Translations under genes and position numbers: made by a program
The notes under the pieces: generated by a model
The model's input: only the letters and a program-made list of their open reading frames with translations
Database searches by the model: none
What the model was told of the DNA's origin: nothing
DNA from: Candidatus Iainarchaeum sp.
Lineage (GTDB): Archaea; Iainarchaeota; Iainarchaeia; Iainarchaeales; UBA10219
Direction of reading: 5' to 3'
DNA: 64,000 nt
Assembly (NCBI GenBank): GCA_018304425.1
Contig: JAGVWE010000007.1
Coordinates: 25,804 to 89,803, forward strand
Part shown: positions 13,477 to 37,185 of the stretch, piece after piece
Layout: each line of letters starts with the position of its first letter
How positions within the stretch are numbered: the first letter of the stretch is position 1

Positions 13477-15354
13477 TCAGGCGCTGTCATCGCCTTTCCC
13501 ACTTTCCTGGGTTTTCTGCGCCTTCTGCCGGGCAAACATGTCCCGGATTTCCTTGGTGGAAGTGGCTTCCTCGGCCTTCTTGTCCGTGCGGAAGGAAACC
13601 AGGCGCGGGAATCGCAACGCGTATCCCGGCTTGCCGGCTTCCCGGCCGCAGGCATGCACCGGGCTGCGCGTGATTTCGTCGGCGCGCACCTCGATGACGT
13701 GCACGGGCTCGGTCCACACGTCGGGTTCAAGGCCGGACTCCACGCGCGCGGGCTTCCGGTTGGCCTTGATTTTCTTCAAGCGCTCCTCCCATTCCGCGAG
13801 CTGGGCCTCGCTCAAGCCCGTGCCAATCTTGGCGATGCTTTCAAAGCAATCCCTTTCCCCATTGTAGGCGGCGGCCAGCAAGGCCCCCAACCCGAACCGG
13901 GTGCGGATGCCCTTCCCCTTGAAGTAACCGATGACCGCCAAATCCACGGAGTCCTGCAACTCGCCCTTGTAACTGCGCTTCAGTTTTATCCACGCGAACT
14001 TCCTCGCACCCGCGATGTACTTCGCGTCCAGGTCCTTTGCGACGATGCCTTCCAGGCCCTGCTCGATGCACCGCGTGAAGAAAGCGTCCACGGCTTCCGG
14101 CTCCTTCGTCACTATCATCGGCGTCACGTCCAGCACCCCGCCCCTTTCCACGATTCGCTCCAGGGTTTTCCTGCGCTCCCGGAACGGCAAGGGCATGAGG
14201 TTTTTTCCGTCCACCATCATGACGTCAAAGGCGAACAACTTCAGCGGCAGCTCCTCGGAAGCCCTTTCGATGCCGTGCTTGCGCTTCCGCTGGATGGTCA
14301 CCTGGAAGGGGAAGAACTCCCCGGTTTCCTCGTTCACCGCCAGGGCCTCCCCCTCGATGATGGCAGTCCGGGCCTTCAAGTGGGTTTTGACGCCTTCAAT
14401 GACTTCGGGGAACATGGGTGTTACATTCTCGCTGCGGCGGCTGAAGATGCTTACCTCGTCTTCCCTCTTGTGCACCTGCAGCCGGAAACCGTCGAACTTT
14501 CCCTCCACCATGCATTCCCCGAGCTTTTCCACGATTTCTCCCGCTGAAGGCAGCCGCTCGGCCAGGGTGGGCCGGATGGGCACGCCAGGCGTCAGCTCCA
14601 CGGCATCCAGTCCCTTGAGGCCCTTTTCCTTGAGCAACCGCGCGATGTCCCCCAAATCCGAGTGAATGTTGTACTTTTCCTCGATGCGTTCCCGCAGCAG
14701 CTGCCGCACGCGCCGCTCGAACTCCTCTCCCCGCTTTTCCTCTTTTTTTTCCTTGAGCTCGGCCTCGATTTTTTCGGCGGCCCGCTTCTCCTTTGCCAAA
14801 AATTCTTTCGAGTAAACGACGGCCAAGGCGTCCATCAAGGTGGGGTCGCCGATGCCCAGCCGCATGGCCCCCAACGGAATCCTTGTGACGAATTTGGCTT
14901 CCAAGGGAGAGGCGCTGTTCAGGAGCTCGGCCAGCAGCTTGAGCTTCTGCTCCTGGCTACCGTGGCCCGAGGCCTTCGCGATGCGCAAAAAGTTGTCGTA
15001 CACCTTTTCGACGGACAGTTTTTCGCGGAAGAGACTTTGCTGCCGCTTTTTTTCCGCGATTTCCTGGGCCACCAGGCCGAGGTCGCCGAGTTTCTGGAAC
15101 CGCTTCCCGACTTCCTCCCGCGCGTACCCAGAAGTCATGGCCAGGGCCTCTTCCACGAGCTTCTCCCCCAAGCCGATGTCATAGCCCTTGAAGCCCGGGG
15201 CAATCTGGCCCTGGCACAGGTAAATGACCTTGGAGACAACGGCGGCATCGGTCTCCCGCTCCCGCAGGAGCCCCCCCAGCAGGGAAGTCATCTCCAGGCG
15301 CGAGGCAGCGGCCTCGATTCGCTCCCAGTAACCGGCCAATTTCCCGAATTCCAT
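13477..15354 (-). CDS. lig: ATP-dependent DNA ligase
   Basis: EGKFDGFR, EGIVAK, WIKLK, ALRFPR. Confidence 0.96.
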   Translation of the reverse strand: MEFGKLAGYWERIEAAASRLEMTSLLGGLLRERETDAAVVSKVIYLCQGQIAPGFKGYDIGLGEKLVEEALAMTSGYAREEVGKRFQKLGDLGLVAQEIAEKKRQQSLFREKLSVEKVYDNFLRIAKASGHGSQEQKLKLLAELLNSASPLEAKFVTRIPLGAMRLGIGDPTLMDALAVVYSKEFLAKEKRAAEKIEAELKEKKEEKRGEEFERRVRQLLRERIEEKYNIHSDLGDIARLLKEKGLKGLDAVELTPGVPIRPTLAERLPSAGEIVEKLGECMVEGKFDGFRLQVHKREDEVSIFSRRSENVTPMFPEVIEGVKTHLKARTAIIEGEALAVNEETGEFFPFQVTIQRKRKHGIERASEELPLKLFAFDVMMVDGKNLMPLPFRERRKTLERIVERGGVLDVTPMIVTKEPEAVDAFFTRCIEQGLEGIVAKDLDAKYIAGARKFAWIKLKRSYKGELQDSVDLAVIGYFKGKGIRTRFGLGALLAAAYNGERDCFESIAKIGTGLSEAQLAEWEERLKKIKANRKPARVESGLEPDVWTEPVHVIEVRADEITRSPVHACGREAGKPGYALRFPRLVSFRTDKKAEEATSTKEIRDMFARQKAQKTQESGKGDDSA

Positions 15355-15468
15355 GCCATCATAGGGAGTCAATGGCCTTAAAACCCTTGTTCCCAGCCTT
15401 TCCAGGCCCCCAACAGGGAAATATTTAAATGGCCGAACTCCCTATATTCTGCCGTTCCAGGGACTTGC

Positions 15469-16115
15469 ATGGCGAAACCAGGTGCATCGGCCGAAGACGG
15501 GGGCGGCAGCACTTCCACGGGCATCCAAGAATTGGCACCTTTCTGGGGGGCGGTTTCCCCAAGGGAGCCGTGGTCCTCGTGGCCGGTTCCTCGGGCAGCG
15601 GCAAGACCATTTTCTCGTTCAACTGGCTGTTCGACGGCGCCCGCAAGGGCGAGAACGGCGTCTACGTCACCTTCACCGAGCCCCTGTTCAAGTCCGTGAA
15701 AAACCTGGAAGTCATGGACTTCTACGACCGCAAGCTCATCGAAGACGAGACCATCAAGATCCTGGACATCCGCGACCTCTACGCCGAGCAAGGCTTCGAC
15801 GCCCAGCGCATCCTGGACACCGTGGAACGGCAGGTCAAGGAAACCAACGCCAAACGCCTCTGCATCGATTCCGTGACCGCGATCGCCTACAACCTGGACG
15901 ACAAGGCGAAGACCCGGAAATTCATTTTCGTGGACTCGCTGTCCACGATGCTGATTTACAACCGGCCGGACGTCTTCGCGCGGTTCATCCACAGCGTGCT
16001 CGTGAAAATCCGGCTGAACTCCATCAGCGGCCTGCTGTTGTTCATTGAAACGCAGGCGGACCGGGAAGTCCGCGCCGAAATCGCACAGTTGTGCGACAAG
16101 GTCCTGCGGGTCTAG
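15469..16115 (+). pseudogene. KaiC/RAD55-like ATPase, frameshifted and apparently chimeric
   Basis: STGIQEL continues in another frame as TFLGGGFPKG...GSSGSGKT (1-nt loss near 15535); abrupt switch at KFIF|VDSLSTMLIYN. Confidence 0.7.
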
Positions 16116-16121: not shown

Positions 16122-16514
16122 TCACCAGCCGTCTGTTTTGAGGTTTTTCACGCGGTCGAAATGTTTGCGGTTGTTGGTGACCAAGATGGCCTCATGGCAT
16201 ACTGCGATGGCCGCAATCATGAGGTCCAGTACTTCGAGGCGGTTCCCCTTGCGGATGAATTCTGCGTCGAGTAGGGCGACCTGTTCGGCGGCATCAACTT
16301 CGAAGGGAAGCGGTTGTAGCGAGGCCAGGAATTTCCTCGCAAGGTCGAGGCTGGCAGGCGTGCCATACAGCCGCTCTCCAACCAGCACTTCGTATATGTT
16401 GATGCAGGTAGTGGCGATTTCCTTGTCCTGCTCCGGTAGTTGCCGTAATTTTGCGGTCGCAGCCTCTTTTCCGCGAAGATAGGCGATGATGCAATCGGAG
16501 TCAAGGATTATCAT
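16122..16514 (-). CDS. vapC: PIN-domain toxin
   Basis: IILDSD, DLMIAAIA, LVTNNRKHF. Confidence 0.92.
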   Translation of the reverse strand: MIILDSDCIIAYLRGKEAATAKLRQLPEQDKEIATTCINIYEVLVGERLYGTPASLDLARKFLASLQPLPFEVDAAEQVALLDAEFIRKGNRLEVLDLMIAAIAVCHEAILVTNNRKHFDRVKNLKTDGW

Positions 16515-16755
16515 GCATTCTCGCCTGTCGTTTCCAGAATGATGCCGTCGAGTCTTTCCTCAGTCGCCTGTACAAGGCCAGCCGCTTTTCGGCTTCCTCA
16601 TCGGTCATCGGGATGCTGCCGAAATACTTCATGAGGTCGGGTTGTTCCTTTTCCGCCAGCCGCTCGAGCAGGTCGCTGAAGCTCTCGCCTTCGTGCTTGG
16701 CCCTGATGAGCTTCTCATAGACCTTGCCCTTGATGGTAAGGGTTTTGAAGACCAT
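16501..16755 (-). CDS. vapB: VapB-type antitoxin
   Basis: KTLTIKGKVYEKL...ESFSDLLERL; overlaps the toxin start. Confidence 0.88.
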   Translation of the reverse strand: MVFKTLTIKGKVYEKLIRAKHEGESFSDLLERLAEKEQPDLMKYFGSIPMTDEEAEKRLALYRRLRKDSTASFWKRQARMHDNP

Positions 16756-16889
16756 GCTATGTTTAAGGTTAAACATATATTTAATCCTTGCTTCCATCCT
16801 TTTAAGCAACAAACTATTTTTAAGGCAATTGTCGTAATATTGGTGTGTTCGGAGAGTAGATTAATATAGCCATAAAGCAATATAGCTAT

Positions 16890-17138
16890 ATGGCTACAAC
16901 TACGTTGCGGGTGCAACTGCCGGAGGAAAAAGCCAGAAAGGTGCGGGAGCAAGCCATGAAACGCTTCGGTTATTCGAAAGGGGCCATCAGCAAGGCGCTC
17001 AATGTGGCCTTGGATGAATGGTTGGGGAAGGCGAAACCAGCCAAACCGCCTATCACGGCCAAGGACTTGTTAGGGCGGCTGAGTGGCGTAAAGGAGTCCT
17101 CCGTGGAACTCCAGCACAAGGCTCGTGACTATTGGTAG
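16890..17138 (+). CDS. Ribbon-helix-helix antitoxin
   Basis: RFGYSKGAISKAL, SSVELQH; directly upstream of a PIN gene. Confidence 0.82.
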   Translation: MATTTLRVQLPEEKARKVREQAMKRFGYSKGAISKALNVALDEWLGKAKPAKPPITAKDLLGRLSGVKESSVELQHKARDYW

Positions 17139-17146
17139 GCTGTGCC

Positions 17147-17551
17147 ATGTATTTGCTGGACACCAACATTTTTTTGGAAATCCTCCTCGATGGCGCACGC
17201 GCCACCGAATGCCTGCGCCTGCTCTCCCTTTTGCAGGGCGAACGGCTGTCTGCGGTTGTTTCGAAGTTCGCGGTTTATTCGATTTGCCTGATTCTTTTCA
17301 GGAAAAAACAACCCGATCTGGCCCGGGATTTCCTGGCCTATCTGGATTCCCTTCCAACCCTGCAAATCCATGGGACCTCCCTTGAGGAGGATGCCGAAGC
17401 CTTCGCCAGCGCGGAGAAATTTGGCCTTGACTTTGACGACGGCCTGCAGTTTACGGTTGCCAAGCGCTTGAGCGTGGAAGCCATCGTCTCCTTTGACCGG
17501 GACTTCGACAAGACCCCCTTGAAGCGCCTGGAGCCAAGTCAAATCCTTTGA
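17147..17551 (+). CDS. vapC: PIN-domain toxin
   Basis: YLLDTNIFLE, LDFDDGLQ, IVSFDRDFD. Confidence 0.9.
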   Translation: MYLLDTNIFLEILLDGARATECLRLLSLLQGERLSAVVSKFAVYSICLILFRKKQPDLARDFLAYLDSLPTLQIHGTSLEEDAEAFASAEKFGLDFDDGLQFTVAKRLSVEAIVSFDRDFDKTPLKRLEPSQIL

Positions 17552-17565: not shown

Positions 17566-17730
17566 TCACTCGGCTTCCGTTTCCTGTCGTCTGACCCGAA
17601 GGAAGATGCCCGCCGCAATCAGGGCCGCGAGCGCCATCGTGAGTTCGTCGTACTCGGGGATGACGTTGAGGGTGTTGCGGCTGCCGAAGGCGCTGGTCGT
17701 GGTTGGACGGGAAAACCGCTCGTTTCCCAT
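17566..17730 (-). repeat. Orphan PEF-CTERM-like tail, copy 5 (possible 54-aa ORF)
   Basis: Translates MGNERFSRPTTTSAFGSRNTLNVIPEYDELTMALAALIAAGIFLRVRRQETEAE. Confidence 0.85.
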
Positions 17731-18149
17731 ATCGTCAGTAAAACATTTGGCGGTGAAATATGACAGTCGAATATTCTGTTGAGCCCTGGTACGCGCTTGA
17801 AATGCCTGGCGTTCCCGGTCAACAGGGTTTCCCGGGCTTGGAGGGCAATGGCCGCAATCATGCAGTCCTGTGGTTCGATGGGTTGGCCGGTTTGCCAGAG
17901 TCCTTGCTGGATTTCGCCTGCCTCGTTTGCGGCTTGGGCATCCAATGGCAGGGCAGGCAGGGAGGAAAAGAGTTCGCGGACGCGTTGCCTTTCTTCTTTT
18001 CCGGCGCGGTGGAGGCTTTGAATGACTTCAAACACGGTGATAGCCGTCGTCAGCAACGGTTCGCCTTTTCGCTTCAACTCCTCCGCCTTGGCGGCCGCAC
18101 CCTTTTCTCCCCTGATAAGGTCAATGACGTAGCTGGTGTCAAGAATCAT
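17619..18149 (-). CDS. vapC: PIN-domain toxin that has lost its native stop (read-through tail)
   Basis: MILDTSYVID, DCMIAAIA, LLTGNARHFKRVPGL, then unrelated sequence. Confidence 0.8.
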   Translation of the reverse strand: MILDTSYVIDLIRGEKGAAAKAEELKRKGEPLLTTAITVFEVIQSLHRAGKEERQRVRELFSSLPALPLDAQAANEAGEIQQGLWQTGQPIEPQDCMIAAIALQARETLLTGNARHFKRVPGLNRIFDCHISPPNVLLTIWETSGFPVQPRPAPSAAATPSTSSPSTTNSRWRSRP

Positions 18150-18382
18150 GGACGGAAGCCTTCCATGAGGGCGCGACTCCGCGCCAGGCCGGTGGCTCTC
18201 GACGCTTGCACGGCTTCCTCCACCGTTGCCGTGGTCTTCTTGGACAGTATGCCCGCGAATTTCGTCAAATCCGTTTTGTTGGTGAGCCTGCAAATCACTT
18301 GGCTGAAGCTCTCCCGCGCTTTTTTGCTGGAGGCCAGGCGCTTATAGGCGTCCACCGTAATCGAAATCGTTTTCGTTGCCAA
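18146..18382 (-). CDS. vapB: VapB-type antitoxin
   Basis: TKTISITVDAYKRL...ESFSQVI; TTG start after GGTGGGAG. Confidence 0.87.
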   Translation of the reverse strand: MATKTISITVDAYKRLASSKKARESFSQVICRLTNKTDLTKFAGILSKKTTATVEEAVQASRATGLARSRALMEGFRP

Positions 18383-18458
18383 TCTCCCACCTACACATAC
18401 ATACACATACGTGTATTTAAGGCTTTGGCTGGAAAAGTGGTCGCCCTCGTTTATGCCA

Positions 18459-18560
18459 TTAAACGGTTTTCCCGCGTTCCATGCGCCTAATCCATCCGAA
18501 GGCGAGCGCGGCCAGTAGTACGGTCAAGGCCAGCGTGTAGTCCTCGTATTCTGGGTTCAC
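18459..18560 (-). repeat. Orphan PEF-CTERM-like tail, copy 4
   Basis: Translates VNPEYEDYTLALTVLLAALAFGWIRRMERGKTV-stop. Confidence 0.8.
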
Positions 18561-18565
18561 CTCGG

Positions 18566-19345
18566 TTAATGCTTTTTCAGCCCATTTTTTTGAATCCGTT
18601 CTTCAATTTCTTTTTTCACTTGGGGAAAGGAAGGCAGCGGGCCGCCAACCAGCCCACCCAAGTCCCGTTCCCAACTGCCTTTTTTTTCGTCCACTTTGGC
18701 CCAGAAACCGTCTGGCGTGAACCGGAGCCCGGCATGCGCCATTTTCCTGCTTATGAGCCCCGGTTCGGCGGGCACGCCTCTTCGTTTCAGCAGGTGCCAG
18801 AGGTCGTAGACGTCCCTGGCCTTGTTTCTTTCATGGATTGCCCTGATTTTTTCGGCAAGGATTTCTTTTTCGTCCATGGCAAACAGATTGAATGGCCGGA
18901 TCTCCCGATAAATCGGGGCATACGGAAACGTTTGAACGGGCAGCAGCACGCGTTCCCTCAAGCTGATGTTGACGGCAAGGGAGGTTAGGCTTTCCTTGCT
19001 GCCGTCGTAAAGCGGCCCCCTTGCCTGCACGTAAACGTTTGTGCTCCTTTCAAACGCTTCCACGGTTGCCTTCGCCTTTACGTCCAGCAAGCTGAAAAGG
19101 CCGGGTAACCGCGTAAAGAAATTTTTTGGCTTGAAGCCTTTTCCAGCCGTGAAGTCGAGGTCTTCGCTGAAACGGTCCAACTTGTACGCCTTGTATAGGC
19201 AGGTTCCGCCTTTAAAGACGAGCTTGCTCCCGAACTCCCGGTAAATGTTTATCAAGGCCAGGTCCTGCAGGTAATCCAATTCCGTGAGCCGGAGGCTGAG
19301 GCCCTTGAATTTTGCGACGGCCTGCAGTTCTTCACGCTTGAGCAT
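18566..19345 (-). CDS. AbiEii-family nucleotidyltransferase toxin (type IV TA)
   Basis: FKGGTCL, RFSEDLDF, AEKIRA, KARDVYDL. Confidence 0.92.
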   Translation of the reverse strand: MLKREELQAVAKFKGLSLRLTELDYLQDLALINIYREFGSKLVFKGGTCLYKAYKLDRFSEDLDFTAGKGFKPKNFFTRLPGLFSLLDVKAKATVEAFERSTNVYVQARGPLYDGSKESLTSLAVNISLRERVLLPVQTFPYAPIYREIRPFNLFAMDEKEILAEKIRAIHERNKARDVYDLWHLLKRRGVPAEPGLISRKMAHAGLRFTPDGFWAKVDEKKGSWERDLGGLVGGPLPSFPQVKKEIEERIQKNGLKKH

Positions 19346-19919
19346 GCAGCGCCTCCCGCAATTTTTTGGCCCAGCCCCTCGCCTTTTTCGCGTGAAGCAA
19401 AAGCCTGTCCCTGTTGATTTTCCGCTTGTTGTTTTTTATGATGTCCACGGCCTCGGCCAAAGACATTTTCCTGGTCGCCAAGGCGTCCACGATTGCTTTT
19501 TCTTTCTCGGCCAAGAAGATTTCCCGGCCCTGGTAGGTCGTCCGCTGGAAGCCGGTGAAGGCGGTTTCCTTGATTTTGATGAATTCAATCCGGGCGTTCC
19601 CATAGGAAACGATTTTTTTCTTCCTCTTCCGGGTCGTGATTACATGGATGGTGAACGGCAGTTGCTCCGTCAATTTATGGTAGTTTAACGCCGCCCAGCA
19701 CGAGATATAACTTGGCCAGACGATCCATGACGCCACGAGGAATGAATCCGTTTCCAGCGTGTACTTGCCCTTCTCGATTTCGTGGAGGACGCCCGCCTTT
19801 TTCAGCCGGTGTGCGACGAGGTACGCGTAATCAATGCCTTTATGGAGCGTGTCGGCGAGGTCCCTGGCCGTAAAAACCGGGTACGGCTTTAATGCCTCCA
19901 GCTCCTTCTTTTTTATCAT
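19332..19919 (-). CDS. AbiEi-family antitoxin / transcriptional regulator
   Basis: EKGKY, PSYISCWAALNYHKLTEQLP, AEKEKAIVD. Confidence 0.88.
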   Translation of the reverse strand: MIKKKELEALKPYPVFTARDLADTLHKGIDYAYLVAHRLKKAGVLHEIEKGKYTLETDSFLVASWIVWPSYISCWAALNYHKLTEQLPFTIHVITTRKRKKKIVSYGNARIEFIKIKETAFTGFQRTTYQGREIFLAEKEKAIVDALATRKMSLAEAVDIIKNNKRKINRDRLLLHAKKARGWAKKLREALHAQA

Positions 19920-19947
19920 TCCACCAACCTTATCAAAACTGATATGA

Positions 19948-20523
19948 TTAGCCGCCCAACAATTTATAAGGCTTTTCGCTGGTGTTGCCGCCTAATCCCT
20001 GCAAACGCCATGGCCGCCAGGATAACGGCCAGCGCCATCGTGAGTTCGTCGTATTCGGGGATGACGTTGAGCGTGTTGTGGCTGCCGAAGGCGCTGGTCG
20101 TGGTTGGACGGGAAAACCGCTCGTTTCCCATATCGTCAGTAAAACATTTGGCGGTGAAATATGACAGTCGAATATTCTCTTGGCGTTCCTGGTCAACAGG
20201 ATTTCACGGGCTTGAAGGGCAATGGCCGCAATCATGCAGTCTTGTGGTTCGATGGGTTGGCCGCTTTGCCAGAGCCCTTGCTGGATTTCGCCTGCCTCAT
20301 TCGCGGCTTGGGCATCCAATGGCAGGGCGGGCAGCGAGGAAAAAAGTTCTTGGACGCGTTGTTTTTCTTCTTTTCGGGCACGGTGCAGGCTTTGAACTAC
20401 TTCGAACACCGTGACGGCCGTCGTCAGCAACGGTTCGCCTTTCTTCTTCAATTCCTCGGCTTTGGTGACCGCACCCTTTTCCCCCCGAATCAGGTCAATG
20501 ACATAGGTGGTGTCAAGAATCAT
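19948..20523 (-). CDS. vapC: PIN-domain toxin, paralog of 17619-18149, C-terminally deleted and read through
   Basis: MILDTTYVID...LLTRNAK; the HFKRVPGL segment is missing. Confidence 0.7.
   Translation of the reverse strand: MILDTTYVIDLIRGEKGAVTKAEELKKKGEPLLTTAVTVFEVVQSLHRARKEEKQRVQELFSSLPALPLDAQAANEAGEIQQGLWQSGQPIEPQDCMIAAIALQAREILLTRNAKRIFDCHISPPNVLLTIWETSGFPVQPRPAPSAATTRSTSSPNTTNSRWRWPLSWRPWRLQGLGGNTSEKPYKLLGG
19964..20131 (-). repeat. Orphan PEF-CTERM-like tail, copy 3 (possible 55-aa ORF)
   Basis: Translates ...TTTSAFGSHNTLNVIPEYDELTMALAVILAAMAFAGIRRQHQRKAL-stop. Confidence 0.85.
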
Positions 20524-20756
20524 TGTTGGAGGCCTTCCATTAGGGCGCGACTGCGTGCCAGGCCGGCAGCCCTTGACGCTTGCACGGCCTTTTCCATGGT
20601 GGCCGCGGTTTTCTTGGACAAGATGCCCGCGAATTTCGTCAAATCCGTTTTGTTGGTGAGCCTGCAAATGACTTGGCTGAAGCTTTCCCGTTCCATTTTA
20701 CTAGAAGCCAGGCGCTTGTAGGCGTCCACCGTAATCGAAATGGTTTTCGTCGCCAA
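20520..20756 (-). CDS. vapB: VapB-type antitoxin, paralog of 18146-18382
   Basis: Near-identical protein sequence. Confidence 0.87.
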   Translation of the reverse strand: MATKTISITVDAYKRLASSKMERESFSQVICRLTNKTDLTKFAGILSKKTAATMEKAVQASRAAGLARSRALMEGLQQ

Positions 20757-20847
20757 AGCTATCACCTACACATACATACACATACGTGTATTTAAGGATT
20801 TGGTTGAAACCGCCTTCTCTGCCCAGTCTGCCCGGTTTGCCCAGGCC

Positions 20848-21066
20848 TCACCGGTCTTTCCCGCGTTCCCTGCGCCGGATGTGCGCGAACGCCATCGCCA
20901 CCAGGGCCACGGCTAGCAGCAGGGTTAGGTCATCGTACTCGGGGATGACGTTGAGGGTGTTGGGGCTGCAGGCGCTCGTCGTGGTGTAGAGGTCGTCGGC
21001 CACCACGCGGATGTAATAGTCGCCGCTGGTGATGTCGCAGTTCCAGGCGTACACGCAGTTGATGTC
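20848..21066 (-). repeat. Orphan C-terminal fragment of the surface protein, copy 2
   Basis: DINCVYAWNCDITSGDYYIRVVADD...ACSPNTLNVIPEYDDL-TM-RRR aligns with the end of the 1270-aa ORF. Confidence 0.9.
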
Positions 21067-21092
21067 TTGAGGTCGCAGACGGGTGGAGACCA

Positions 21093-22469
21093 TCAGCCGA
21101 ATGTTTCTTCAAGATCCTTCAAGTCATAGAGGTCGGCGTTTTTTTCGTCGATCTTTTTTTCCTTGAATGATTTCGCGAATAGGCAATACCGTTCCGTTCT
21201 GTGCTCTTTGAACCAGCTTACTTTTTCCGCTTTTTGTTTGAGTTTTCGCAGCAGGCTCTCGGCATCGACTTTTTCTTTCCACTTGCATTCGCAGAAGAGT
21301 GCGCTTTTTTTTGCCTTGCTAAGGCCCACGATGTCTATTTCTTCGCCTTTATCCCACCAGCTGCCGATGAGGTAGTCCTTGAAGGCGGCATTTTTGGACA
21401 GCCGGTCTCGGCACACCTCTTCGAACCCTTTGCCGATGAAGGCGTTCAGTTCGGGCTCTATTTTCTCGTTTAAGAGGTTTTTCTGCTTGCGTTGTTCTAC
21501 GTAATCCATGTTTTCAAACACGAAGCGGAACCAGAAGCGGAAGAAAGGGTCTTTCAGTTTGTAGATGCCTTTCCTCGATTTTTCCTTTCGCTCAGTAATG
21601 GGCACGGCACGCTCGACGAGGTCAAGGTCAATCAATACGCCAAGGTATTTGTTTACGGTGCCTTTTTCCAGGCCCGTGTCGTTGACGATGCGCCCGATGC
21701 CGGTGTTGCCCTTTGCGATGGCGGCCACGATGGAAAAATAGTTTCTCGGCTCGTCCAGTTCCTCCCGCAGCACGAACATCGGGTCCCGGAACAGGAAGGA
21801 CTGCTTTTCCAGGATTTTTTCCCCGATATTGGAAACCAGCGTTTTCGTGTAATCAAATTCAAGCAGGTAGGCAGGGGTGCCACCGAGCACCGCGTAGTAA
21901 CTGATTTGTTTTTTGATGTCCATCGTTTTCGGGAAGAAATGGCGGGCTTCGCTGAAATCAAGGGGGTCAAGCTTCATTTGATGTGTTCGCCTCCCGTAGA
22001 GGGGACTCTTATAGCCGAGGAGTTTTTCCATCATGGAGACGCTGGAGCCGCATAAGACGAAGAGGCAGGGCATGTGTTGGAGTGCCTTATCCCAGTGGTC
22101 TTGCAGAATGGAGGGCAGCGAGGGGTTAGCTTGTACGAAGTAAGGGAACTCGTCCAGGAATACGGCGAACGGTTTTTGCTTCAGTTTTTCGGCGAAGTAG
22201 GAGAAAACGGAGTCGAAGTTGCCAAAGGGCCTTGAATTCAGTTGTTCATCGTTGAAAAACTCGGCGCAGGCCCTGCTGATATGCTCCAATTGCTTGTGTT
22301 CGGATTCCTGCCGGCCCAGCAGGTAAACAGCGGGATGATTTTTTGTGAATTCCCTTAGTAACTCGGTTTTGCCGATTCTACGTCTGCCGTATACTACGGC
22401 TAGCACTGGCTTTTTTGCCGACCAAAGCGTTTCAAGCAACTGTAGTTCCTTCACCCGGTTGTAAAACAT
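21093..22469 (-). CDS. Archaeal AAA+ ATPase with wHTH and C-terminal PD-(D/E)XK-like (DUF234-type) domain
   Basis: YGRRRIGKT, LDEFPY, SPLYGRRT, EIDIV...ECKW. Confidence 0.9.
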   Translation of the reverse strand: MFYNRVKELQLLETLWSAKKPVLAVVYGRRRIGKTELLREFTKNHPAVYLLGRQESEHKQLEHISRACAEFFNDEQLNSRPFGNFDSVFSYFAEKLKQKPFAVFLDEFPYFVQANPSLPSILQDHWDKALQHMPCLFVLCGSSVSMMEKLLGYKSPLYGRRTHQMKLDPLDFSEARHFFPKTMDIKKQISYYAVLGGTPAYLLEFDYTKTLVSNIGEKILEKQSFLFRDPMFVLREELDEPRNYFSIVAAIAKGNTGIGRIVNDTGLEKGTVNKYLGVLIDLDLVERAVPITERKEKSRKGIYKLKDPFFRFWFRFVFENMDYVEQRKQKNLLNEKIEPELNAFIGKGFEEVCRDRLSKNAAFKDYLIGSWWDKGEEIDIVGLSKAKKSALFCECKWKEKVDAESLLRKLKQKAEKVSWFKEHRTERYCLFAKSFKEKKIDEKNADLYDLKDLEETFG

Positions 22470-22512
22470 AGTAAACTCTAAAGTATACTACTTATGAGAA
22501 TACTATTTAAAC

Positions 22513-25500
22513 CTATGGTTTGGCCGCCCGTCGCACGCGCAGGAAGATGCCTGCCGCGATCAGGGCCGCGAGCGCCATCGTGATTTCGTCGTACTCGGGG
22601 ATGACGTTGAGGGTGTTGGGGCTGCAGGCGTTGGTTTTGGTGAACCCGTCGTCGGCTTCGACGCGGAGGTAGTAGTTGCCTATCGTTACGTCGCAGGTCC
22701 AGGAATAGAGGCAGCTGGTGTCATCCGGGTTGCAGGCCGCCGTGGTCTGGCTGATGTTGCCGATGATGAGGTTGGTGTTGTTGGCGCAGGTGCTGGCGTC
22801 CGTGCCGTAATAAATGCTGAAGTTGACGTCGTCGAGGTCGGCATCGTCGGCTGTCCATGTAATGTCGTAGGGGGTTGGAACGGTGCAGCTCTGCCCGCTG
22901 CCCGTGGGCGCCACGCTGCTCACGGCCGGCGCATCGTTGGCGCTGATGAGGACGCTGCCGGACTGCTGCTTGATTTGCTTCTTGTTGAGGACACTGTTCC
23001 AGATGAAGACTGAGTCTAAGTCTATATGTGCAAAACCAAGATTATCTAATCTTTGCCCAAATATGATTTTTTGGTCTTCATCACTCATCGTGGTATTACC
23101 CGAACTGGCCCTAAGAACGCCATTAACATACAATCTTCCGCCAACAGTAGTATTCGCCGTCCCTGCGACATGTATCCAGGTATTTTGAGGGAGTGTATCT
23201 ACTGCAGTCAACAAGTTAGCGGTGCCCGACGCACCATATACTAAAACAATATCCTGAGGGAAAGCATCAGCAGCGGTTCTAAAATCGAAAGGTGCAGGAA
23301 AGTTATTATTCGTTGATCCATTTTTTTCGACCATGGGATTATATACTGCAGATTGTGCTCTTACCCAATATGCTACAGTAAATGCCGTGCTAAGACTAGA
23401 AGTCAAATCTGCAATCTCGACTTTGTCATCTACCCCATCAAATTTCAAGTCAGTGTATTCAGCCGGTGTCATAGGGGTGTTCGTGTCCCATCTCGGGCCG
23501 GAAAGCAGTTCCCCATGCTTGTTGCCAGACGTTGCATCCCAGGCCCGGATGGCGTTGCTGTCGTCTTTGTTGAAGTTCCACGCGCTGACCAGCCCGCTTT
23601 CCGTGCCCATTAGTTGTTTGGGCGTGCTGTCTTGTCCAATGTTCTTGGCTTTGTCGTAGACGTTGACGTCGATGAAGTAGTTTTGGTCTGCGAGGCCAGC
23701 GGGGTTCCAGTCGTAGAAGCATAGCACGTTCTGGTCGAAGAAGTAACGGGGTTCGCTGGCGTAACTGGTTCCGCCGGGCGCACTGCAGTTGGCGTCGTTG
23801 GTGGGGTTGCGGGCGAGTTGGGCGAGGTTGACGTCGGCAGCGAATTTGCCTGACGTGTTGAAGTCGGCCGCGTAGAGGCTCGCGTAGAGGCTTGCATAGA
23901 GTTCGTCTTCTTCGCGGAAGTTGCCACTAGCTGGGAGGGGAGCGTAGGAAGTGTCTCTCACCGTGAACTTGACGAGGATGTTGCCGTCCGTTTTCTGGTA
24001 GTGCGAGCCGCCTTCCGGCCAAAGCAGGTTGGCGTCCGGTCCGTTCGTGGTATGCGTGCCACAGTAGTTGTTGCAGCGGTTTATGTAGCCGCTTTCTTGG
24101 TGGATGAAACAGGTGTTGCCGCCCGAGCATTGCCCGGAAGCAGTGCAGGCCGGGTTGCAGCCCCATTGGTTGATGAAGTCCGTGGGCCAGGCGGACGTGA
24201 TGTTGGCGGTGGTGGCCGCAATGTTGAAGTCGATGTCAGCATAGTAGGTGGCTACGCCTAATGTGCCGGTACTGATATTGCAGGGCGCGAACAGGAGGTT
24301 GAAGTCGTACTCGGTGCCGCCCGTGTAGCTGCCGGCACAGGTGATGTTCGCGGTGTTGTCGGGGGCGCTCGAATAGGTGCGTGAACAGCCGGTGGGTAGC
24401 AGGGGCGCGCTGACGAGGGCAAACGTTTTGTAGGGGATGTCGGGGGAGTCAATTAGGGGGTCGTTGCAGGTGTAACCGACTTGTTGGGGCGCCGGTACGA
24501 GGGGCGTGGCATGGTTGCCGCGTATGGGGGTGAGGAGCGATGTCGCATAGTGGGGCTCGATTTTGAAGCCTAGGTTGCCGCTGACATTGGGCATGACTTT
24601 GAGTCTCACGAGGTATTGGTGGGTGTTGGTGTCCGTGGTTGTCAGGTTGAAGGTGAAGTTGGAGTCGGGACTGCAGGCCATGTTGTTGCCGTCTCCGGCG
24701 CGGCCCACGAGGTCGCTGGGGCAGGTGGCGGGCGCGTTGGCGCCGTTGAGGTCAATGCTCGCGTAGAGGACGGCCGCGTTCCAGTCATCAATCCAGTCCA
24801 TGGGGTACATGCGCCACGCGCCTCCCGAGGTCCCGCCGTCGGCTGAAAGGTTGAGGTCTTCGGCCTGGATGTCGGTTGTTCTGGGATGGTTTGCCCAGCG
24901 GCAGGGTTTGACGGTGATTCTTCCAGCGTACGGGGTGCCGCCGGCCAAAGTAGTAGTGGCGTTGCCGTCGTCTCCAACGTAATTGGTGTCGGTGAGCGTC
25001 CAGTGGGGGTTGCGGAGGCCGGCCGTGTTGCCCGTGGTTCCAAACCAGCCGTTGGGGCTGAGGGGGCTGTCAATGAAGTCAACGATTTCCCAGCGGGGAA
25101 GGTTGAGGTCGATGGGCTCCCACAGTGCCCCCCCGAGTATGGGGTCTGAGAAGCATTTGTTGCCCGCGAAGGCGGTGGAATTGTTTGGTACGTAGCTAAT
25201 GGGTTTGCCTTGTCTTACGCCTGCGTCCACGTTGTGGTCGCCGTACGGCGAATCCCATTTTCCGACGGCGCCCGCCGAATAGCGCAAGCCAAAGTTGTTG
25301 TCGATGCTGCGGTGGATGTTGCTCATGATGTTGTAGTCGATGACGTAATTGGTGTCCAGGATGAAGGCCGTGTCGGGCGTGCAGTAGGGGAGTTCCCCGT
25401 TGGTGTCGATTTCGCCGTTATTGGCGTTTCCGGCGTACACCATGCCTCCCATGCTGGTGTGGCTGACGAGGGAGCGGGTGCCGTTCTCGACTTTGACGCA

Positions 25501-26325
25501 GTTGATGTTGTTGCCGGTCAATTCGAGTCCATGGTAGATGGCGTTCACGTTCCAGTCATCGATGAAGTCCAGGGTGTAGGGTTGGGCACCGCAGTTGCCG
25601 AGGTTGCTCTGGTCGTAAAAACGCACGTCCAGGCGCTGGGGGTGGTTCACGAACCGGCATGGAATGGCGGTAGTCCATTTCCCCGCGCATCCGATGATTC
25701 CCCCGGGGCACATCGGGGGCGGGGTGCCACAGGCTGTGCAAGTATTCGGGTTGGGGCAAATCAGTCGTTCGGCGAGGTAGCTGGTGGTGGGGGTCGTGGA
25801 GGTGCAACCGCATCCTTGTCCGGGGGGAACGCAGGCACCGAACGCGGTCTTGGCGCCGCCGATGCAGGCGCCGCCTCCGAGGTTAGCCGTCGTGTTGACC
25901 GCCCATCGGGGCCCGACTCCGGACTTGTTCTCGTCGTTGATGCATTGCCAGCCGACTTCATAGGCCAAGGTCTTGCTGGGGCCGTTTCCACAACTCCAGA
26001 TTGCGTTGAAGCTGGGACATGTTTCGATGCTGATGTTCTCGTCGTAGCTGGGATCAAGCCCCAGGGCTTCGGTCATTTCGAGTTCGAAGGCCCCGGCCGC
26101 GCGTTGGGTTAAGGGTCCAAGGCCTTGGTCTAGGCCGGGGGCATAGGCGTCGATGGGAGTGCAGGAGTCAACTCCTCCCGCCGTCGTCGCACACGGGGTT
26201 CCGGCGCCTCCCGAGTTCGGGCCGCCCCAAGTCAATTCCATGGCGTGTCCGGTGAGGATGGCGGATAGGGCCAGGGCGAGCGCCACCAGCGTCCATCCGG
26301 TCGGCCATCGGATCTGTTTACCCAT
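22513..26325 (-). CDS. Large Cys/Thr/Asn-rich cell-surface protein with LamG-like domain and PEF-CTERM-like sorting signal
   Basis: Signal peptide; LKFDGVDD...WIHVAGT...LYVNG LamG pattern; VIPEY-TM-RVRR tail. Confidence 0.88.
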   Translation of the reverse strand: MGKQIRWPTGWTLVALALALSAILTGHAMELTWGGPNSGGAGTPCATTAGGVDSCTPIDAYAPGLDQGLGPLTQRAAGAFELEMTEALGLDPSYDENISIETCPSFNAIWSCGNGPSKTLAYEVGWQCINDENKSGVGPRWAVNTTANLGGGACIGGAKTAFGACVPPGQGCGCTSTTPTTSYLAERLICPNPNTCTACGTPPPMCPGGIIGCAGKWTTAIPCRFVNHPQRLDVRFYDQSNLGNCGAQPYTLDFIDDWNVNAIYHGLELTGNNINCVKVENGTRSLVSHTSMGGMVYAGNANNGEIDTNGELPYCTPDTAFILDTNYVIDYNIMSNIHRSIDNNFGLRYSAGAVGKWDSPYGDHNVDAGVRQGKPISYVPNNSTAFAGNKCFSDPILGGALWEPIDLNLPRWEIVDFIDSPLSPNGWFGTTGNTAGLRNPHWTLTDTNYVGDDGNATTTLAGGTPYAGRITVKPCRWANHPRTTDIQAEDLNLSADGGTSGGAWRMYPMDWIDDWNAAVLYASIDLNGANAPATCPSDLVGRAGDGNNMACSPDSNFTFNLTTTDTNTHQYLVRLKVMPNVSGNLGFKIEPHYATSLLTPIRGNHATPLVPAPQQVGYTCNDPLIDSPDIPYKTFALVSAPLLPTGCSRTYSSAPDNTANITCAGSYTGGTEYDFNLLFAPCNISTGTLGVATYYADIDFNIAATTANITSAWPTDFINQWGCNPACTASGQCSGGNTCFIHQESGYINRCNNYCGTHTTNGPDANLLWPEGGSHYQKTDGNILVKFTVRDTSYAPLPASGNFREEDELYASLYASLYAADFNTSGKFAADVNLAQLARNPTNDANCSAPGGTSYASEPRYFFDQNVLCFYDWNPAGLADQNYFIDVNVYDKAKNIGQDSTPKQLMGTESGLVSAWNFNKDDSNAIRAWDATSGNKHGELLSGPRWDTNTPMTPAEYTDLKFDGVDDKVEIADLTSSLSTAFTVAYWVRAQSAVYNPMVEKNGSTNNNFPAPFDFRTAADAFPQDIVLVYGASGTANLLTAVDTLPQNTWIHVAGTANTTVGGRLYVNGVLRASSGNTTMSDEDQKIIFGQRLDNLGFAHIDLDSVFIWNSVLNKKQIKQQSGSVLISANDAPAVSSVAPTGSGQSCTVPTPYDITWTADDADLDDVNFSIYYGTDASTCANNTNLIIGNISQTTAACNPDDTSCLYSWTCDVTIGNYYLRVEADDGFTKTNACSPNTLNVIPEYDEITMALAALIAAGIFLRVRRAAKP

Positions 26326-26433: not shown

Positions 26434-26506
26434 GGGCGTGTAGTCTAGTCTGGTAGGATACCAGCTTTGGGAGCTGGCGACCTCGGTTCAAATCCGGGCA
26501 CGCCCA
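26434..26506 (+). tRNA. tRNA-Pro(TGG), intron-less
   Basis: Full cloverleaf; CCAGC-TTTGGGA-GCTGG; upstream TTTAAAA box. Confidence 0.96.
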
Positions 26507-26615
26507 TCCTTTTAAAGCCGCTTTTTTTCTTGGCTGGGCTGGGGGAGCCGCTTCTAGTGCCAAGCCTGCTTTGTCTATCAGGGCAGGGCCTGCACGAAGA
26601 TTATTATGCCTGGTG

Positions 26616-27821
26616 TTAAAACCGGATGGCGGGTTCTTTTTCCGTGAGCCATTCTTGGAGGTTCTTGTTTTCTATTTCGATGTTTTCTTCGGTGCTTTTG
26701 CTTGTCTTTCCGGGGTAGAGGATGGTTGCTTTCAGGGCCTTGTTTTTTTTGCAGAATTCCATCAGGCCTTCCTTTTCCCTTTTTGGCAGGTTTTCGGAGT
26801 AACAAACGTTTATCGGCAACAGGCTCGTTTTTTTCTTTGCGACGAAATCGACTTCCCCGGCGTTTTTCCAGTAATAGGCCTCGAATCCCCGGTGCTTGAG
26901 TTCGATTGCAACTGCTGCCTCGGCAAGCCTGCCCCTGTCTTCGGTGAATGACTTTGAAGCGTATTGCTGCATTCCCAAGTCAAAGGCAAAGACCTTTCTG
27001 GGCTTTGAAAGGGATTCCTTTAGGGAGAACGAAAAGAACGGGACCTGGAAAACCAGGAAGGAGGCTTCCAGGTAACCCAGGAACTGTCTTATCGTGTCGT
27101 ACGACAAGCCAAGGGCGACCCGCATTTTTTTCAGGCTTACTTGTTTTCCGGAGTTCGTCAACAGGTAAAACGCAAGGTTTCGTAAAGCCGCAGGGTCTCT
27201 CACGTCATGCCGCGTAATTATGTCTTTAATCAAGGCGAGTTCGAAATAGGACTCCAACAATTTTTCTTTTTTTTCGGGGTGCAAGGCGACTTCAGGGTAG
27301 CCCCCAATCTTGAGGTAGGCGTTAAGGCCTTTCTTGGTTACGCGCTGAAACTCGCTGAAAGAAAAAGGCAGTACTTGAAAACCAATCCCCCTTCCACCCA
27401 AAGAAGTCGCAAACTCGCTGCTCAAGAGCTTTGCGGAAGAACCCGTGACTATTACCTGGCACTGCCGTGTGTCGACGGCCCTTCGGACCCATTTCTCCCA
27501 TCCCTCGACTAATTGCACTTCATCGAAGACAAGGGTGTCTTTCGCCTTCAAGCCGTCTGCAAAAGCGTCCAGTAAATCGGTGTTCAACGAGCCCACAAGC
27601 TTCGGGTCTTCCAGGTTGACGTACCGTGTCAACGTGTTCTCCGGCATTTTTTTCAGAAGCCTTCGGGCGACAACGGATTTCCCTGAACGCCTGGGGCCAT
27701 ACAAGAAAACGACGTTGCGACTGCCCACGAAGGGCAGTATGTCATCTTCAACGTCTCTTTTGAAGGTAGTCTCTTTGACGGCCCATTTTTCCAGAAGCTC
27801 GCCTAATTCCCTTGAAAGCAT
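26616..27821 (-). CDS. AAA_14/DUF4143-type ATPase
   Basis: GPRRSGKS, FDEVQ, TGSS, GGYPE, EVDFV. Confidence 0.9.
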   Translation of the reverse strand: MLSRELGELLEKWAVKETTFKRDVEDDILPFVGSRNVVFLYGPRRSGKSVVARRLLKKMPENTLTRYVNLEDPKLVGSLNTDLLDAFADGLKAKDTLVFDEVQLVEGWEKWVRRAVDTRQCQVIVTGSSAKLLSSEFATSLGGRGIGFQVLPFSFSEFQRVTKKGLNAYLKIGGYPEVALHPEKKEKLLESYFELALIKDIITRHDVRDPAALRNLAFYLLTNSGKQVSLKKMRVALGLSYDTIRQFLGYLEASFLVFQVPFFSFSLKESLSKPRKVFAFDLGMQQYASKSFTEDRGRLAEAAVAIELKHRGFEAYYWKNAGEVDFVAKKKTSLLPINVCYSENLPKREKEGLMEFCKKNKALKATILYPGKTSKSTEENIEIENKNLQEWLTEKEPAIRF

Positions 27822-27850
27822 GAAAAACCGGTGCGCAAACGAATATATAA

Positions 27851-27874
27851 AGGGTTACGTTACAACGTAACCCT
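27851..27874. promoter_or_regulatory. Perfect 11-bp inverted repeat between TATA-like boxes upstream of the ATPase; putative operator
   Basis: AGGGTTACGTT-AC-AACGTAACCCT. Confidence 0.6.
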
Positions 27875-27938
27875 ATATAAAGGCTCAAAAAACGCTGTTG
27901 GCGGGTTTAAACCCCCAAACAGGATGTAAGCCGGGCCA

Positions 27939-28107
27939 GGCCTATGCAACGCATAGGCCGTTTCCCCGAAGACTTTGTCTTCGGGGCCTCGTCTCCCAAC
28001 AGGGAGACAAGGTCGCAGGCCTTTTGTAAAAAGGCGTGCGAGGCGAAGCCGAGCCAGTTCCATGCCGTGCATGGAACCTTTTCGCAGGCCTTTTGTAAAA
28101 AGGCCTT
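27939..28107 (+). repeat. Cluster of about 7 consecutive hairpins (REP-like element or structured leader)
   Basis: GGCCTATGC/GCATAGGCC, CCCCGAAGAC/GTCTTCGGGG, GTCTCCC/GGGAGAC, GTTCCATGC/GCATGGAAC, and two copies of TCGCAGGCCTTTTGTAAAAAGGC. Confidence 0.75.
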
Positions 28108-28230
28108 GGGCGTGTAGTCTAGTCTGGTAGGATACCAGCTTTGGGAAAGCCTTTTTTGCTTGCGCAAAAAACCCTTGGGAAAAGGGCTTCCAGCGTGCTG
28201 GCGACCTCGGTTCAAATCCGGGCACGCCCA
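28108..28230 (+). tRNA. tRNA-Pro(TGG), second copy, with 50-nt intron (28146-28195)
   Basis: Exons identical to 26434-26506 except nt 38; BHB geometry at 37/38 with one mismatch. Confidence 0.85.
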
Positions 28231-28269
28231 TCATAGTATAGTTCCAATCAGCTTGTCCTTGTGGGTAGC

Positions 28270-29529
28270 TTACCTTTCAAGGAGCCATTTCCAGGCAGGC
28301 GTCACCCTTGTCTTGCCGATTCGGGTTTCTTGGTCATACGTTATGATGATGCCTTTCCTGCCGCCAAATCGTTGGATGGCTTCCTCTAGGCCCCTGGTTT
28401 CGCGTTTCTTGTTTTCTTCGGTGAGCGTGTGGCACACCTGTATGCAGGCATCCTTGGTTAGGAAGTCGCATTCAAATCCGTTCTTGTAATAGTTTATTTC
28501 AGTGTTGCCACGGCGGAACAATTCCGTGAACACAATGTTTTCCAGTATTCTGCCGGGGTCTTTTTCGGTGTTGTAGTAGTTGATGAAGCCATGGTCGCAG
28601 ACATAGGCCTTTTTCAGGTAGGCCGATTCCTTTTTGAAGGATTTTTGTTTTGCATTGACAAAGAAGCAAAAGTATGCGTCTTCAAGGCATTTCGAGTATT
28701 TCTGTATAACGGAGGTGCTGGATTTGTAGCCACTGCTTTTCGCAAAGTTGTTGAATTTGTTCATTGAGTACTCGGAAGCATATTGCCTCGTGAGGTTCTT
28801 CATGAGCAACCGCATCAGTTCGATGTTCTCTACCTTGAACCGCTCGACGATGTCCTGGAATAGCGTGGTTTTGAAGTATTGGTCGATGAACTCCAGCTTC
28901 TTTTCCAGCACTATTTCCGGGAACCCACTCAGGTGCATGAACTCGTCAAACGCTTTTTTTACGGCTGCTTTGGTTCCATTGAACTCCCAATTCCTGCCCG
29001 GGCGGATGCCCCGTATTCCAAGGAATTCCTTGAATGACAAGGGCATCACTTGAATGGGATAGTCCCGTCCCCTCACGGCAGTGGCGATTTCCTTGCTTAA
29101 AAGCCTCGAATTGGAGCCGGTGACATAAACCCGATAAGCTTCGTCGTTCACGCGCCTGACGAATTTTTCCCAGCCCGCCACATTCTGGATTTCGTCAAAA
29201 AAAAGCAGGGGTCTTTTGTCCGGGTAAAGCTCGCCATAAGCTTCCAGTGCCAGCCCCAGCTGGCTGGCTTTCATTTCCGAAATCCGTTCGTCCTCGAAAT
29301 TAAGGTAGAGAAAATCAACCAAATCCAAACCCTTTTTCAGGTGTTCCTGCATGATCTGGTAAAGCATGTAGGTTTTGCCGGCCCTCCTGGGACCAAGGAT
29401 TACGAAAACCTTGTTGACCTCCTTGAATTCAGGCACTTCGACGTCTCTCTCGAATGCCTTCGGCAGCCCCCTTGAATGAAAACCCGCAATGGCTTCCTTG
29501 ACGGCTTTCTTTATCTCGACATCCAGCAT
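28270..29529 (-). CDS. AAA_14/DUF4143-type ATPase
   Basis: GPRRAGKT, FDEIQ, TGSN, GFPE, ECDF. Confidence 0.9.
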   Translation of the reverse strand: MLDVEIKKAVKEAIAGFHSRGLPKAFERDVEVPEFKEVNKVFVILGPRRAGKTYMLYQIMQEHLKKGLDLVDFLYLNFEDERISEMKASQLGLALEAYGELYPDKRPLLFFDEIQNVAGWEKFVRRVNDEAYRVYVTGSNSRLLSKEIATAVRGRDYPIQVMPLSFKEFLGIRGIRPGRNWEFNGTKAAVKKAFDEFMHLSGFPEIVLEKKLEFIDQYFKTTLFQDIVERFKVENIELMRLLMKNLTRQYASEYSMNKFNNFAKSSGYKSSTSVIQKYSKCLEDAYFCFFVNAKQKSFKKESAYLKKAYVCDHGFINYYNTEKDPGRILENIVFTELFRRGNTEINYYKNGFECDFLTKDACIQVCHTLTEENKKRETRGLEEAIQRFGGRKGIIITYDQETRIGKTRVTPAWKWLLER

Positions 29530-29652
29530 ACTATACTAGCCCCCCAACAGCTATTTAAATCTTTCTTTTAAAAGAAAGAATTATGGCAAAATTGTTCTCT
29601 TAAAAGAATGCTTTTGCCTGCGGCCATTAGTCTGGCCCGGCAGGCTGCCCCA

Positions 29653-29694
29653 CTTTGGGAGCTGGCGACCTCGGTTCAAATCCGGGCACGCCCA
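29653..29694 (+). repeat. 3' half remnant of tRNA-Pro(TGG) (att-like direct repeat)
   Basis: 42 bp identical to 26465-26506; 5' half replaced. Confidence 0.9.
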
Positions 29695-29714
29695 TTCGCC
29701 TTCTATTTTCCCTC

Positions 29715-30839: not shown

Positions 30840-30907
30840 GCCTGTGCCCCGAACAGAATAAATAAAGCGGGGTTATAAAGTTTTCCCTGGCTAAAATCGT
30901 GGGGCCA

Positions 30908-30980
30908 GGGGAGGTAGTCTAGTCTGGCAGGATACCAGCTTGGGGTGCTGGCGACCCGAGTTCAAATCTCGGCCTCCCCA
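30908..30980 (+). tRNA. tRNA-Pro(GGG)
   Basis: Full cloverleaf; CCAGC-TTGGGGT-GCTGG. Confidence 0.96.
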
Positions 30981-36837: not shown

Positions 36838-36874
36838 GATACGTTGTTAAGCGGATTCGCTTATAATTATAGGC

Positions 36875-37180: not shown

Positions 37181-37185
37181 CGGGT

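Follow-up and report, generated by a model that had tools for sequence, protein, structure and literature searches.

Surface-gene tails between toxin-antitoxin and ATPase modules in Candidatus Iainarchaeum: a candidate C-terminal-displacement array

How small defence and toxin-antitoxin (TA) modules accumulate at one chromosomal site without mobility genes of their own is poorly explained. This question is raised by a locus of Candidatus Iainarchaeum sp. in a stretch of 64,000 nucleotides (contig JAGVWE010000007.1, positions 25,804 to 89,803; hereafter the window, to which coordinates without a label refer). On the minus strand, a gene for a 1270-aa surface protein is followed by an AAA ATPase gene, a vapBC pair, an abiEi/abiEii pair and a second vapBC pair, and the surface gene and each module end in one short coding tail (T1 to T5) consisting of PEY(D/E), a hydrophobic helix, a basic cluster and a stop. 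The five tails and this order had been proposed by a model from the letters and their open reading frames (hereafter the sequence-only reading), and both are confirmed here. We favour, with a probability of roughly 0.6, a C-terminal-displacement array resembling those of rhs genes, in which homologous recombination would have brought in TA and ATPase cargo, followed by exchange at the tail core, within an insertion hotspot between the DNA ligase gene (lig) and tRNA-Pro. The host assembly comprises 1.48 Mb (92.5% complete, array on contig C7). The window was compared with another assembly of the same strain (L039) and with four (X3, X6, X7 and X18) of the 19 listed sequencing runs that contain the stretch, which are labelled as groundwater or soil metagenomes.

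The layout of the array is established and comprises, in the direction of transcription:

22513-26325, minus strand: surface-protein gene (1270 aa), the anchor gene of the array
22513-22630, minus strand: tail T1, the intact gene end; positions 22589-22630 are a 42-nt run identical to T2
22505-22511, minus strand: TATA-like box of the AAA cassette, one base past the T1 stop
21093-22469, minus strand: archaeal AAA ATPase (Pfam ATPase_2 and DUF234; PADLOC candidate PDC-S27)
20848-21066, minus strand: tail T2, with 123 nt of homology 5' of the Pro codon
20790-20796, minus strand: TATA-like box of vapBC1
20179-20765, minus strand: vapBC1 (vapB 20520-20765, vapC from 20520)
20105-20179, minus strand: spacer, identical to the one before T5, then a 9-codon stub; the intact version holds a 13-bp hairpin
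19964-20104, minus strand: tail T3, whose helix is an A/B mosaic and whose stop falls within the TATA-like box that follows (19964-19970)
18566-19919, minus strand: abiEi (19332-19919) and abiEii (18566-19345), a type IV TA module
18459-18560, minus strand: tail T4, the shortest and most diverged, with 6 nt of homology 5' of the Pro codon
18415-18421, minus strand: TATA-like box of vapBC2
17777-18382, minus strand: vapBC2, 86% identical to vapBC1 across an 809-bp unit
17704-17777, minus strand: second copy of the spacer and stub
17566-17703, minus strand: tail T5, with the helix type of T1 and of the homologue P0001

TATA-like boxes follow T1 to T4 as first proposed (at 22511, 20796, 19970 and 18421), and they are the only such boxes on the minus strand between 17400 and 22600 (genome background, 0.3 per kb per strand). 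Two of them lie at a stop codon, as had also been noted: the T1 box begins one base after the stop and the T3 box contains it. The tails claimed for T3 and T5 are real, but the first 27 nt of the frames originally drawn (20131-20105 and 17730-17704) have no tail homology. The two tail types were also said to alternate, whereas the helix order is A (T1), B (T2), A/B mosaic (T3), B-like (T4) and A (T5).

Where do these tails come from? The surface protein has a hydrophobic N-terminus, a LamG domain, an Ig-like domain and the PEY tail. Similarity among the tails is non-random (mutual blastn E values of 1e-17 to 1e-69 for T1-T3 and T5, about 1e-4 for T4 against T3), and the best match outside the locus in the whole genome has a blastn E value of 0.07 or a tblastn E value of 0.017, the latter without PEY. 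The signal had been taken for one common to many surface proteins, but a six-frame scan and blastn/tblastn found no other copy in the 1.48-Mb genome: the nine raw six-frame matches are the five tails and four weak or PGF/PGY matches. Portability therefore cannot stem from many donor genes. Three full-length homologues from other assemblies (P0001, P0011 and P0013) each finish in a PEYD tail of their own, and both helix types occur as ends of such homologues. As the tails are unique to the locus while homologues carry their own PEYD tails, they are the 3' ends of one gene family, represented by several of its alleles or paralogues, rather than ends borrowed from many surface proteins.

All five tails have the tripartite C-terminus (motif, helix and basic cluster; hydropathy 2.28-2.76) of PEF-CTERM proteins, whose reported sortase, in the accessible part of the source, is archaeosortase C, ArtC (PMC5244752). 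The sequence-only reading had suggested looking for the archaeosortase gene, and an archaeosortase-family candidate lies on another contig (C1:451927-452664): it passes the exosortase/archaeosortase family signature (TIGR04178, 30.9 vs 23), and its best subfamily is ArtC, below threshold (TIGR03762, 23.2 vs 100). A second, weak exosortase-family match is found at L002 (G000:C3:290181-290582; E 0.23). The likeness to the PEF-CTERM/archaeosortase C system, as far as the available text of two papers describes it (PMC5244752, PMC6098224), extends to motif, helix, basic cluster and an exosortase/archaeosortase gene with ArtC as its closest subfamily, whereas the motif here is PEY, matches lie below the TIGR03024 and TIGR03762 cut-offs, and there is one apparent full-length substrate in the assembly. 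The TIGR03024 search gave no match but was insensitive, no genome scoring above the cut-off in the control. Because the tail is cut off in ArtA systems, according to the part of that work available (PMC6098224), replacing one such tail by another should matter little.

Two further features of the surface gene concern its body. The LamG core (23030-23480, about codons 950-1100) has a GC3 of 0.32 vs 0.68-0.90 elsewhere in the gene and stands between conserved flanks; the flank unit is repeated twice in P0001 and three times in P0011, around different cores, so that the LamG core looks like a swapped-in passenger domain. The alleles P0002, P0003 and P0008 are otherwise near-identical, their differences being crowded into short stretches (around residues 593-612 and 872-885), which suggests patchwise recombination with divergent alleles.

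The argument for recombination starts from an identity step at PEYD. Conservation of the core NTLNVIPEYD (ten codons, 30 nt) is established: T1, T2, T3 and T5 are identical at 27-30 of 30 positions, falling to 22-34 of 48 in the helix half after the core (mostly 46-71%), except for T1/T5 (44 of 48). Between T1 and T2, codons at shared residues are identical in 11/16 cases upstream, 13/14 in the core and 1/7 downstream, and the 3' halves of these two tails thus appear to carry a much deeper history than their 5' halves. The mosaic T3 resembles T5 as far as the ninth codon and T2 from there on. Relative to the Pro codon (at 22599, 20943, 20059, 18554 and 17658 in T1-T5), tail homology begins 123, 45, 6 and 45 nt upstream in T2, T3, T4 and T5, respectively; because these left ends differ, there is no fixed crossover.

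The modules themselves also bear on the history of the array. L039 has 54 nt at 20179 and 27 nt at 17777 that are missing from the window, and both vapC genes end normally in it. Because these extra bases complete both genes, an assembly slip at a repeat probably accounts for each truncated vapC end of the window. The vapBC unit is present twice with the same boundaries; its genes are 82-96% identical per 50 nt, the spacer and the 5' part of the tail are 100% identical across about 120 nt, and the tail preceding each unit has the same RERGK-type ending. The last codons of abiEii are unlike those of database alleles. A 13-bp perfect inverted repeat starts from the vapC stop (L039 2479-2535), identical in both units and found nowhere else in the genome. 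When seven junction stretches were folded, only this vapC spacer folded better than shuffles (z -3.46), unlike the junctions after the ATPase and abiEii (z 0.84 and -0.16). Readings of the hairpin as an inverted gene remnant, an attC site or a general end of PIN cassettes were unsupported, and it is absent after the other 19/21 PIN genes examined.

The T3/T5 frame holds a 9-codon stub similar to the N-terminus of the full-length homologue P0001 (5/15,000 background peptides score as high, in the best of six comparisons). For the T2 stub the similarity is not significant (0.11-0.25), T4 has no stub, and similarity between the T3 spacer and the DNA upstream of the surface gene is not significant (96/500 shuffles). 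At least the T3/T5 junction may derive from a full-length gene whose body was deleted in frame and which was later copied along with vapBC.

New combinations of half-tails are seen in other assemblies. A profile search of short proteins gave 11 matches among the 8000 candidates scored. P0052/P0055, present on three ENA contigs and one NCBI contig (the latter source-labelled Ca. Norongarragalinales), join an unchanged T5 5' half to a helix half that nothing in this assembly matches at more than 63%, and cannot be a chimera of the five window tails. P0050/P0054 (two ENA contigs) correspond to T2 with a T5-type patch, and P0053 adds a tail whose 5' end and helix are both different; the contig that encodes it equals in size that of P0047, an abiEii allele with a different ending (237/250 identical). 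P0012 consists of T2 5' and T1 3' and P0049 of T3 5' and T5 3', junctions expected of a circle or a deletion; P0012 is the one that a T1-T2 circle would have. Two proteins from the tail clusters (P0038 and P0040) were unrelated and were dropped.

In run X18, Logan contigs carry cassette pieces about 80-97% identical to those of the window, from a divergent population: a T1-like core adjoins abiEii, abiEi comes after a T3-like core that has a different ending, a T3-like helix continues into the T2 ending, and the ATPase promoter follows the Ig-like part of the surface gene via a diverged stretch. In the abiEii record, 47 unaligned bases fit the end of P0047 and the start of P0053 (1+30+16), assuming that the record ends at the core; this record and P0047/P0053 may not be independent sources. 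We infer from these sequences that exchange at the core takes place, because P0052/P0055 pair the same 5' half with a foreign helix and X18 contigs link cassettes to other tails.

In the mechanism we favour, the landing site would be the 3' end of one surface-protein gene family. An incoming segment, donated by a related strain or species, would combine the helix half of a tail, a promoter and a TA or ATPase module with the 5' half of a different tail. Such segments would be stacked behind the gene successively, every event leaving an older 3' end downstream, and T5 would probably be the oldest resident end. Older surface-gene bodies would be lost, in T3/T5 apparently through in-frame internal deletion, while self-promoted and probably addictive modules would be retained. 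The conserved coding core of 30-45 nt would serve as an anchor for general recombination, by which modules between two cores could be duplicated, exchanged or patched. No dedicated recombinase would be required; RadA, whose gene is present in the genome, is the likely catalyst, and any intermediate may have been circular. A changed anchor of the surface protein would be a near-neutral by-product. The sequence-only reading had taken the shared coding segment for a portable recombination site. Of this, a core acting as a recombination junction stands (identity step, new 5'/3' pairings, other tail-cassette joints), but the segment is not drawn from many donor genes.

Several observations weigh against this mechanism. 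No tail-to-tail joint appeared in the same-strain runs X3, X6 and X7, among the joints listed (15/20), in contigs, which drop rare variants, nor did the run contigs show a circle; likewise the predicted swap of the surface protein's anchor was not seen, 7/7 near-identical cluster members reaching the C-terminus ending like T1. P0012 and P0049 could be assembly chimeras (identical runs of 42 nt and 23 nt), the variant tails are known as proteins alone, and the X18 joints are single low-depth contigs (4.3-8.6x, sides of 31-56 nt) aligned at 80% likeness, a level open to other organisms and repeats. The T4 core is identical at just 13-14/18 bases, and the synonymous excess of the core over upstream codons is small, its limits having been set after inspection. 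At 30-45 nt, the cores are short for general recombination; an archaeal paper fixing the limit was not found in the open-access literature. Finally, 21/23 PIN matches in the genome are tailless, so that TA modules also arrive in it without a tail.

Each of the alternatives draws on part of the same evidence. If the locus were a static relic of tandem full-length paralogues, between which TA modules inserted before all but the first gene collapsed, the tails would be passive scars and the variants products of occasional gene conversion. The T3/T5 stub, the occurrence of both helix types at the ends of full-length homologues and the unchanged module order in L039 agree with this, as do a tandem pair of small, intact PEF-CTERM genes that G049 carries between lig and tRNA-Pro(TGG) (L087 7271-8500), on the same strand and at the same position as this array, and another tandem gene pair at L175. 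Decayed paralogues in an invariant order, the outcome named by the sequence-only reading as contrary to it, are thus partly what we find, in that T3/T5 look like a collapsed full-length gene and G049 has tandem PEF-tail genes. However, L039 is the same strain, so that its order tests nothing, similarity of the T2 stub is not significant and T4 is stubless, the three different right-hand junctions in the window as well as P0053 all retain PEY, and one vapBC right junction is paired with three helix halves (T3, T5 and P0052). We therefore regard a static relic as an unlikely account, if a coherent one. We hold the same doubt about an integrase-free analogue of integrons, in which the sorting-signal core would be maintained as a recombination site and TA/defence cassettes, each ending in a translated mini-tail, would circulate as 1-2 kb circles among related archaea.

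Two other explanations seem still less probable. The tails could be kept as translated mini-proteins (33-81 aa), operon-coupled and membrane-inserted, for example as a sortase decoy or an accessory TA component. Measured from the upstream stop, an in-frame start sits at -1 nt in T2 (an ATG at 21093 that overlaps the ATPase stop) and at +5 nt in both T3/T5 and T4, with a joint chance of about 0.002 under a random-position null and an offset window picked after inspection, and every listed variant tail retains helix, basic cluster and stop. Given these offsets, the tails may be translated. Against this, the T4 start is the Val codon of the motif, the N-terminal parts are unrelated and lack a signal peptide, and no RNA run is among the 19 listed runs, which came from a DNA-oriented search. 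We consider this function improbable. Site-specific accretion, in which integrase elements targeted the gene 3' end, restored it and were later eroded to their TA/ATPase cargo, as at tRNA genes, is the least probable of all. It is suggested by the similar stack at the adjoining tRNA-Pro(TGG), made of a full copy, an ATPase, an intron-bearing copy, an ATPase and a 3' remnant, and by three tyrosine-recombinase matches in the genome. Yet none of these matches lies in or near the array (the nearest is about 43 kb off on C7), the left ends of the tails differ and the T4 core is diverged, against the fixed crossover and uniform core expected of such accretion. Moreover, viral contigs yielded no tail pattern, hairpin pattern or abiEii and only two marginal 25-residue matches to vapC, which leaves abiEii and vapC without convincing viral relatives.

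The displacement reading takes its shape from a known family of loci. The tip of Rhs/CDI polymorphic toxins is a toxin paired with an immunity gene. In the displacement model for rhs, as set out in the accessible portion of its source, homologous recombination brings in a core fragment of variable length together with its tip and the genes in between, displacing the previous tip downstream; circular DNA bearing the tip and these genes was proposed, with no dedicated recombinase (Jackson et al. 2009, PMC2935791). The array resembles rhs arrays in that an intact gene is followed by dissociated 3' ends of the same gene family, and in that a conserved core fragment of variable length precedes a variable tip, here with the identity step at PEYD; the variable left ends of T2-T5 fit such core fragments. 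Among tails still attached to a full-length protein, the helix of P0001 is identical to those of T1/T5 at 18-19/20 residues (T5, 18/20), and that of P0011 to T2 at 11/20; the near-identical alleles show no swap (7/7). In contrast to rhs arrays, the tip is a sorting signal rather than a toxin, the cargo consists of self-promoted VapBC, AbiE and AAA ATPase modules rather than immunity genes, the core is only 30-45 nt long and the host is an archaeon.

A different bacterial precedent fits as well. In type VI secretion system (T6SS) clusters of Vibrio cholerae, incoming modules use a homologous anchor to insert at the front, after which the previous gene disappears while useful genes farther downstream are retained, as the available text describes it (Kirchberger et al. 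2017, PMC5361080). Homology-facilitated illegitimate recombination of this kind would give equally ragged junctions, although here TA modules and an ATPase are what was retained, each set off by a homologous tail. Our data do not discriminate between rhs-type displacement and insertion by one anchored end with the other end ragged. Integrons (archaeal ones and CALINs included) share with the array co-oriented cassettes of one or two genes that are repeat-separated and TA-rich, going by the accessible part of the source (Ghaly et al. 2022, PMC9668308). Unlike in integrons, no IntI was found in the genome (TIGR02249 best 112.6 bits vs a cut-off of 265), the separator is coding sequence without attC-like folding, as judged against shuffles rather than by an attC model, and the sole hairpin follows the vapC genes only. 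The array is integron-like in stacking TA cassettes, yet it is not an integron.

The nearest archaeal parallel is VARTIG of Thermococcales, as portrayed in the available part of its description (Makarova et al. 2021, PMC8416519), in which a large surface protein likewise heads a variable locus, with C-terminal exchange between strains and species, an integrase-free vicinity and a putative sorting signal. There, however, the downstream genes encode small membrane and Ig proteins, within-locus recombination was not found, and the term toxin-antitoxin does not occur in the accessible text (PMC8416519). Surface-gene tails separating TA or ATPase modules were not found in listings of the open-access literature.

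The array lies in an interval bounded and shared by the following features:

13477-15372, minus strand: DNA ligase gene (lig), left boundary of the variable interval
16122-17551: two extra vapBC pairs without a tail, flanking the array in the same island (16890-17551, plus strand; 16122-16746, minus strand)
26434-26506, plus strand: tRNA-Pro(TGG), right boundary of the variable interval

Among 154 genomes with a lig match, 58 lig-adjacent regions were picked for contig room and spread. ARAGORN called tRNA-Pro in 48 of them, never more than 9.1 kb from the lig start and in 42 cases at 3.5 kb or less; the distance here is 11 kb. Besides the tandem genes of G049, cargo of the interval includes, in G053, a vapBC that shares about 40% identity with the untailed pair beside T5 and, in G001, an AAA ATPase. 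The lig-tRNA-Pro interval is an insertion hotspot. The tail array itself occurs in none of the 58 regions. No orthologous array was found in 196 genomes of the order, nor by DNA in 215 of the class, a weak test because the host genome is the sole member of its family in the set searched. None of 12 cassette-homologue loci has a PEY/PEF tail. Protein queries found no related loci in metagenome or genome contigs, an alignment query found five distant loci without tails, and a DNA pattern query found one locus, that of L039. An atlas search with T2 reached at best 0.87, including a PEFG-CTERM cluster at 0.85, which is a lead only, and Rfam gave one chance match on L039.

Other parts of the genome show rearrangements of their own. 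The tRNA-Pro stack (26434-30981) consists of the TGG copy, an AAA_14/DUF4143 ATPase, a TGG copy with a 50-nt intron (28107-28232), a second ATPase, a 3' remnant (about 29628-29695), a further gene, which we take to be VIT1-like, and tRNA-Pro(GGG). Both ATPases match PADLOC PDC-S01. The pattern of gene end and cargo is repeated here at a tRNA. The halves of a KaiC-like ORF (15429-16115) match different genome regions; it is apparently an internally deleted or fused gene, with an identical sequence in run X3. At 36580-38372, a relBE-like pair (named from its sequence) stands between two diverged copies of a unit made of a small membrane gene and a hypothetical gene. A 66-bp duplication that includes a tRNA-Tyr 3' end surrounds 2.9 kb of cargo (G000:C3:187639-190587) and is a classical att scar.

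The value of this case lies in its junction evidence at the population level: the locus supplies nucleotide-level junctions and population variants for gene-tail displacement in an archaeon with a reduced genome, and the populations with other combinations point to stacking and swapping of defence genes without a dedicated enzyme. The displacement model yields specific predictions that can be tested by PCR. It would also tie the turnover of a surface protein, plausibly a host-contact or virus-receptor gene, to the gain of TA modules. Were the integron-like circulation of cassettes to prove true, and similar arrays to be found behind other anchor genes, such arrays would represent a general route to defence islands.

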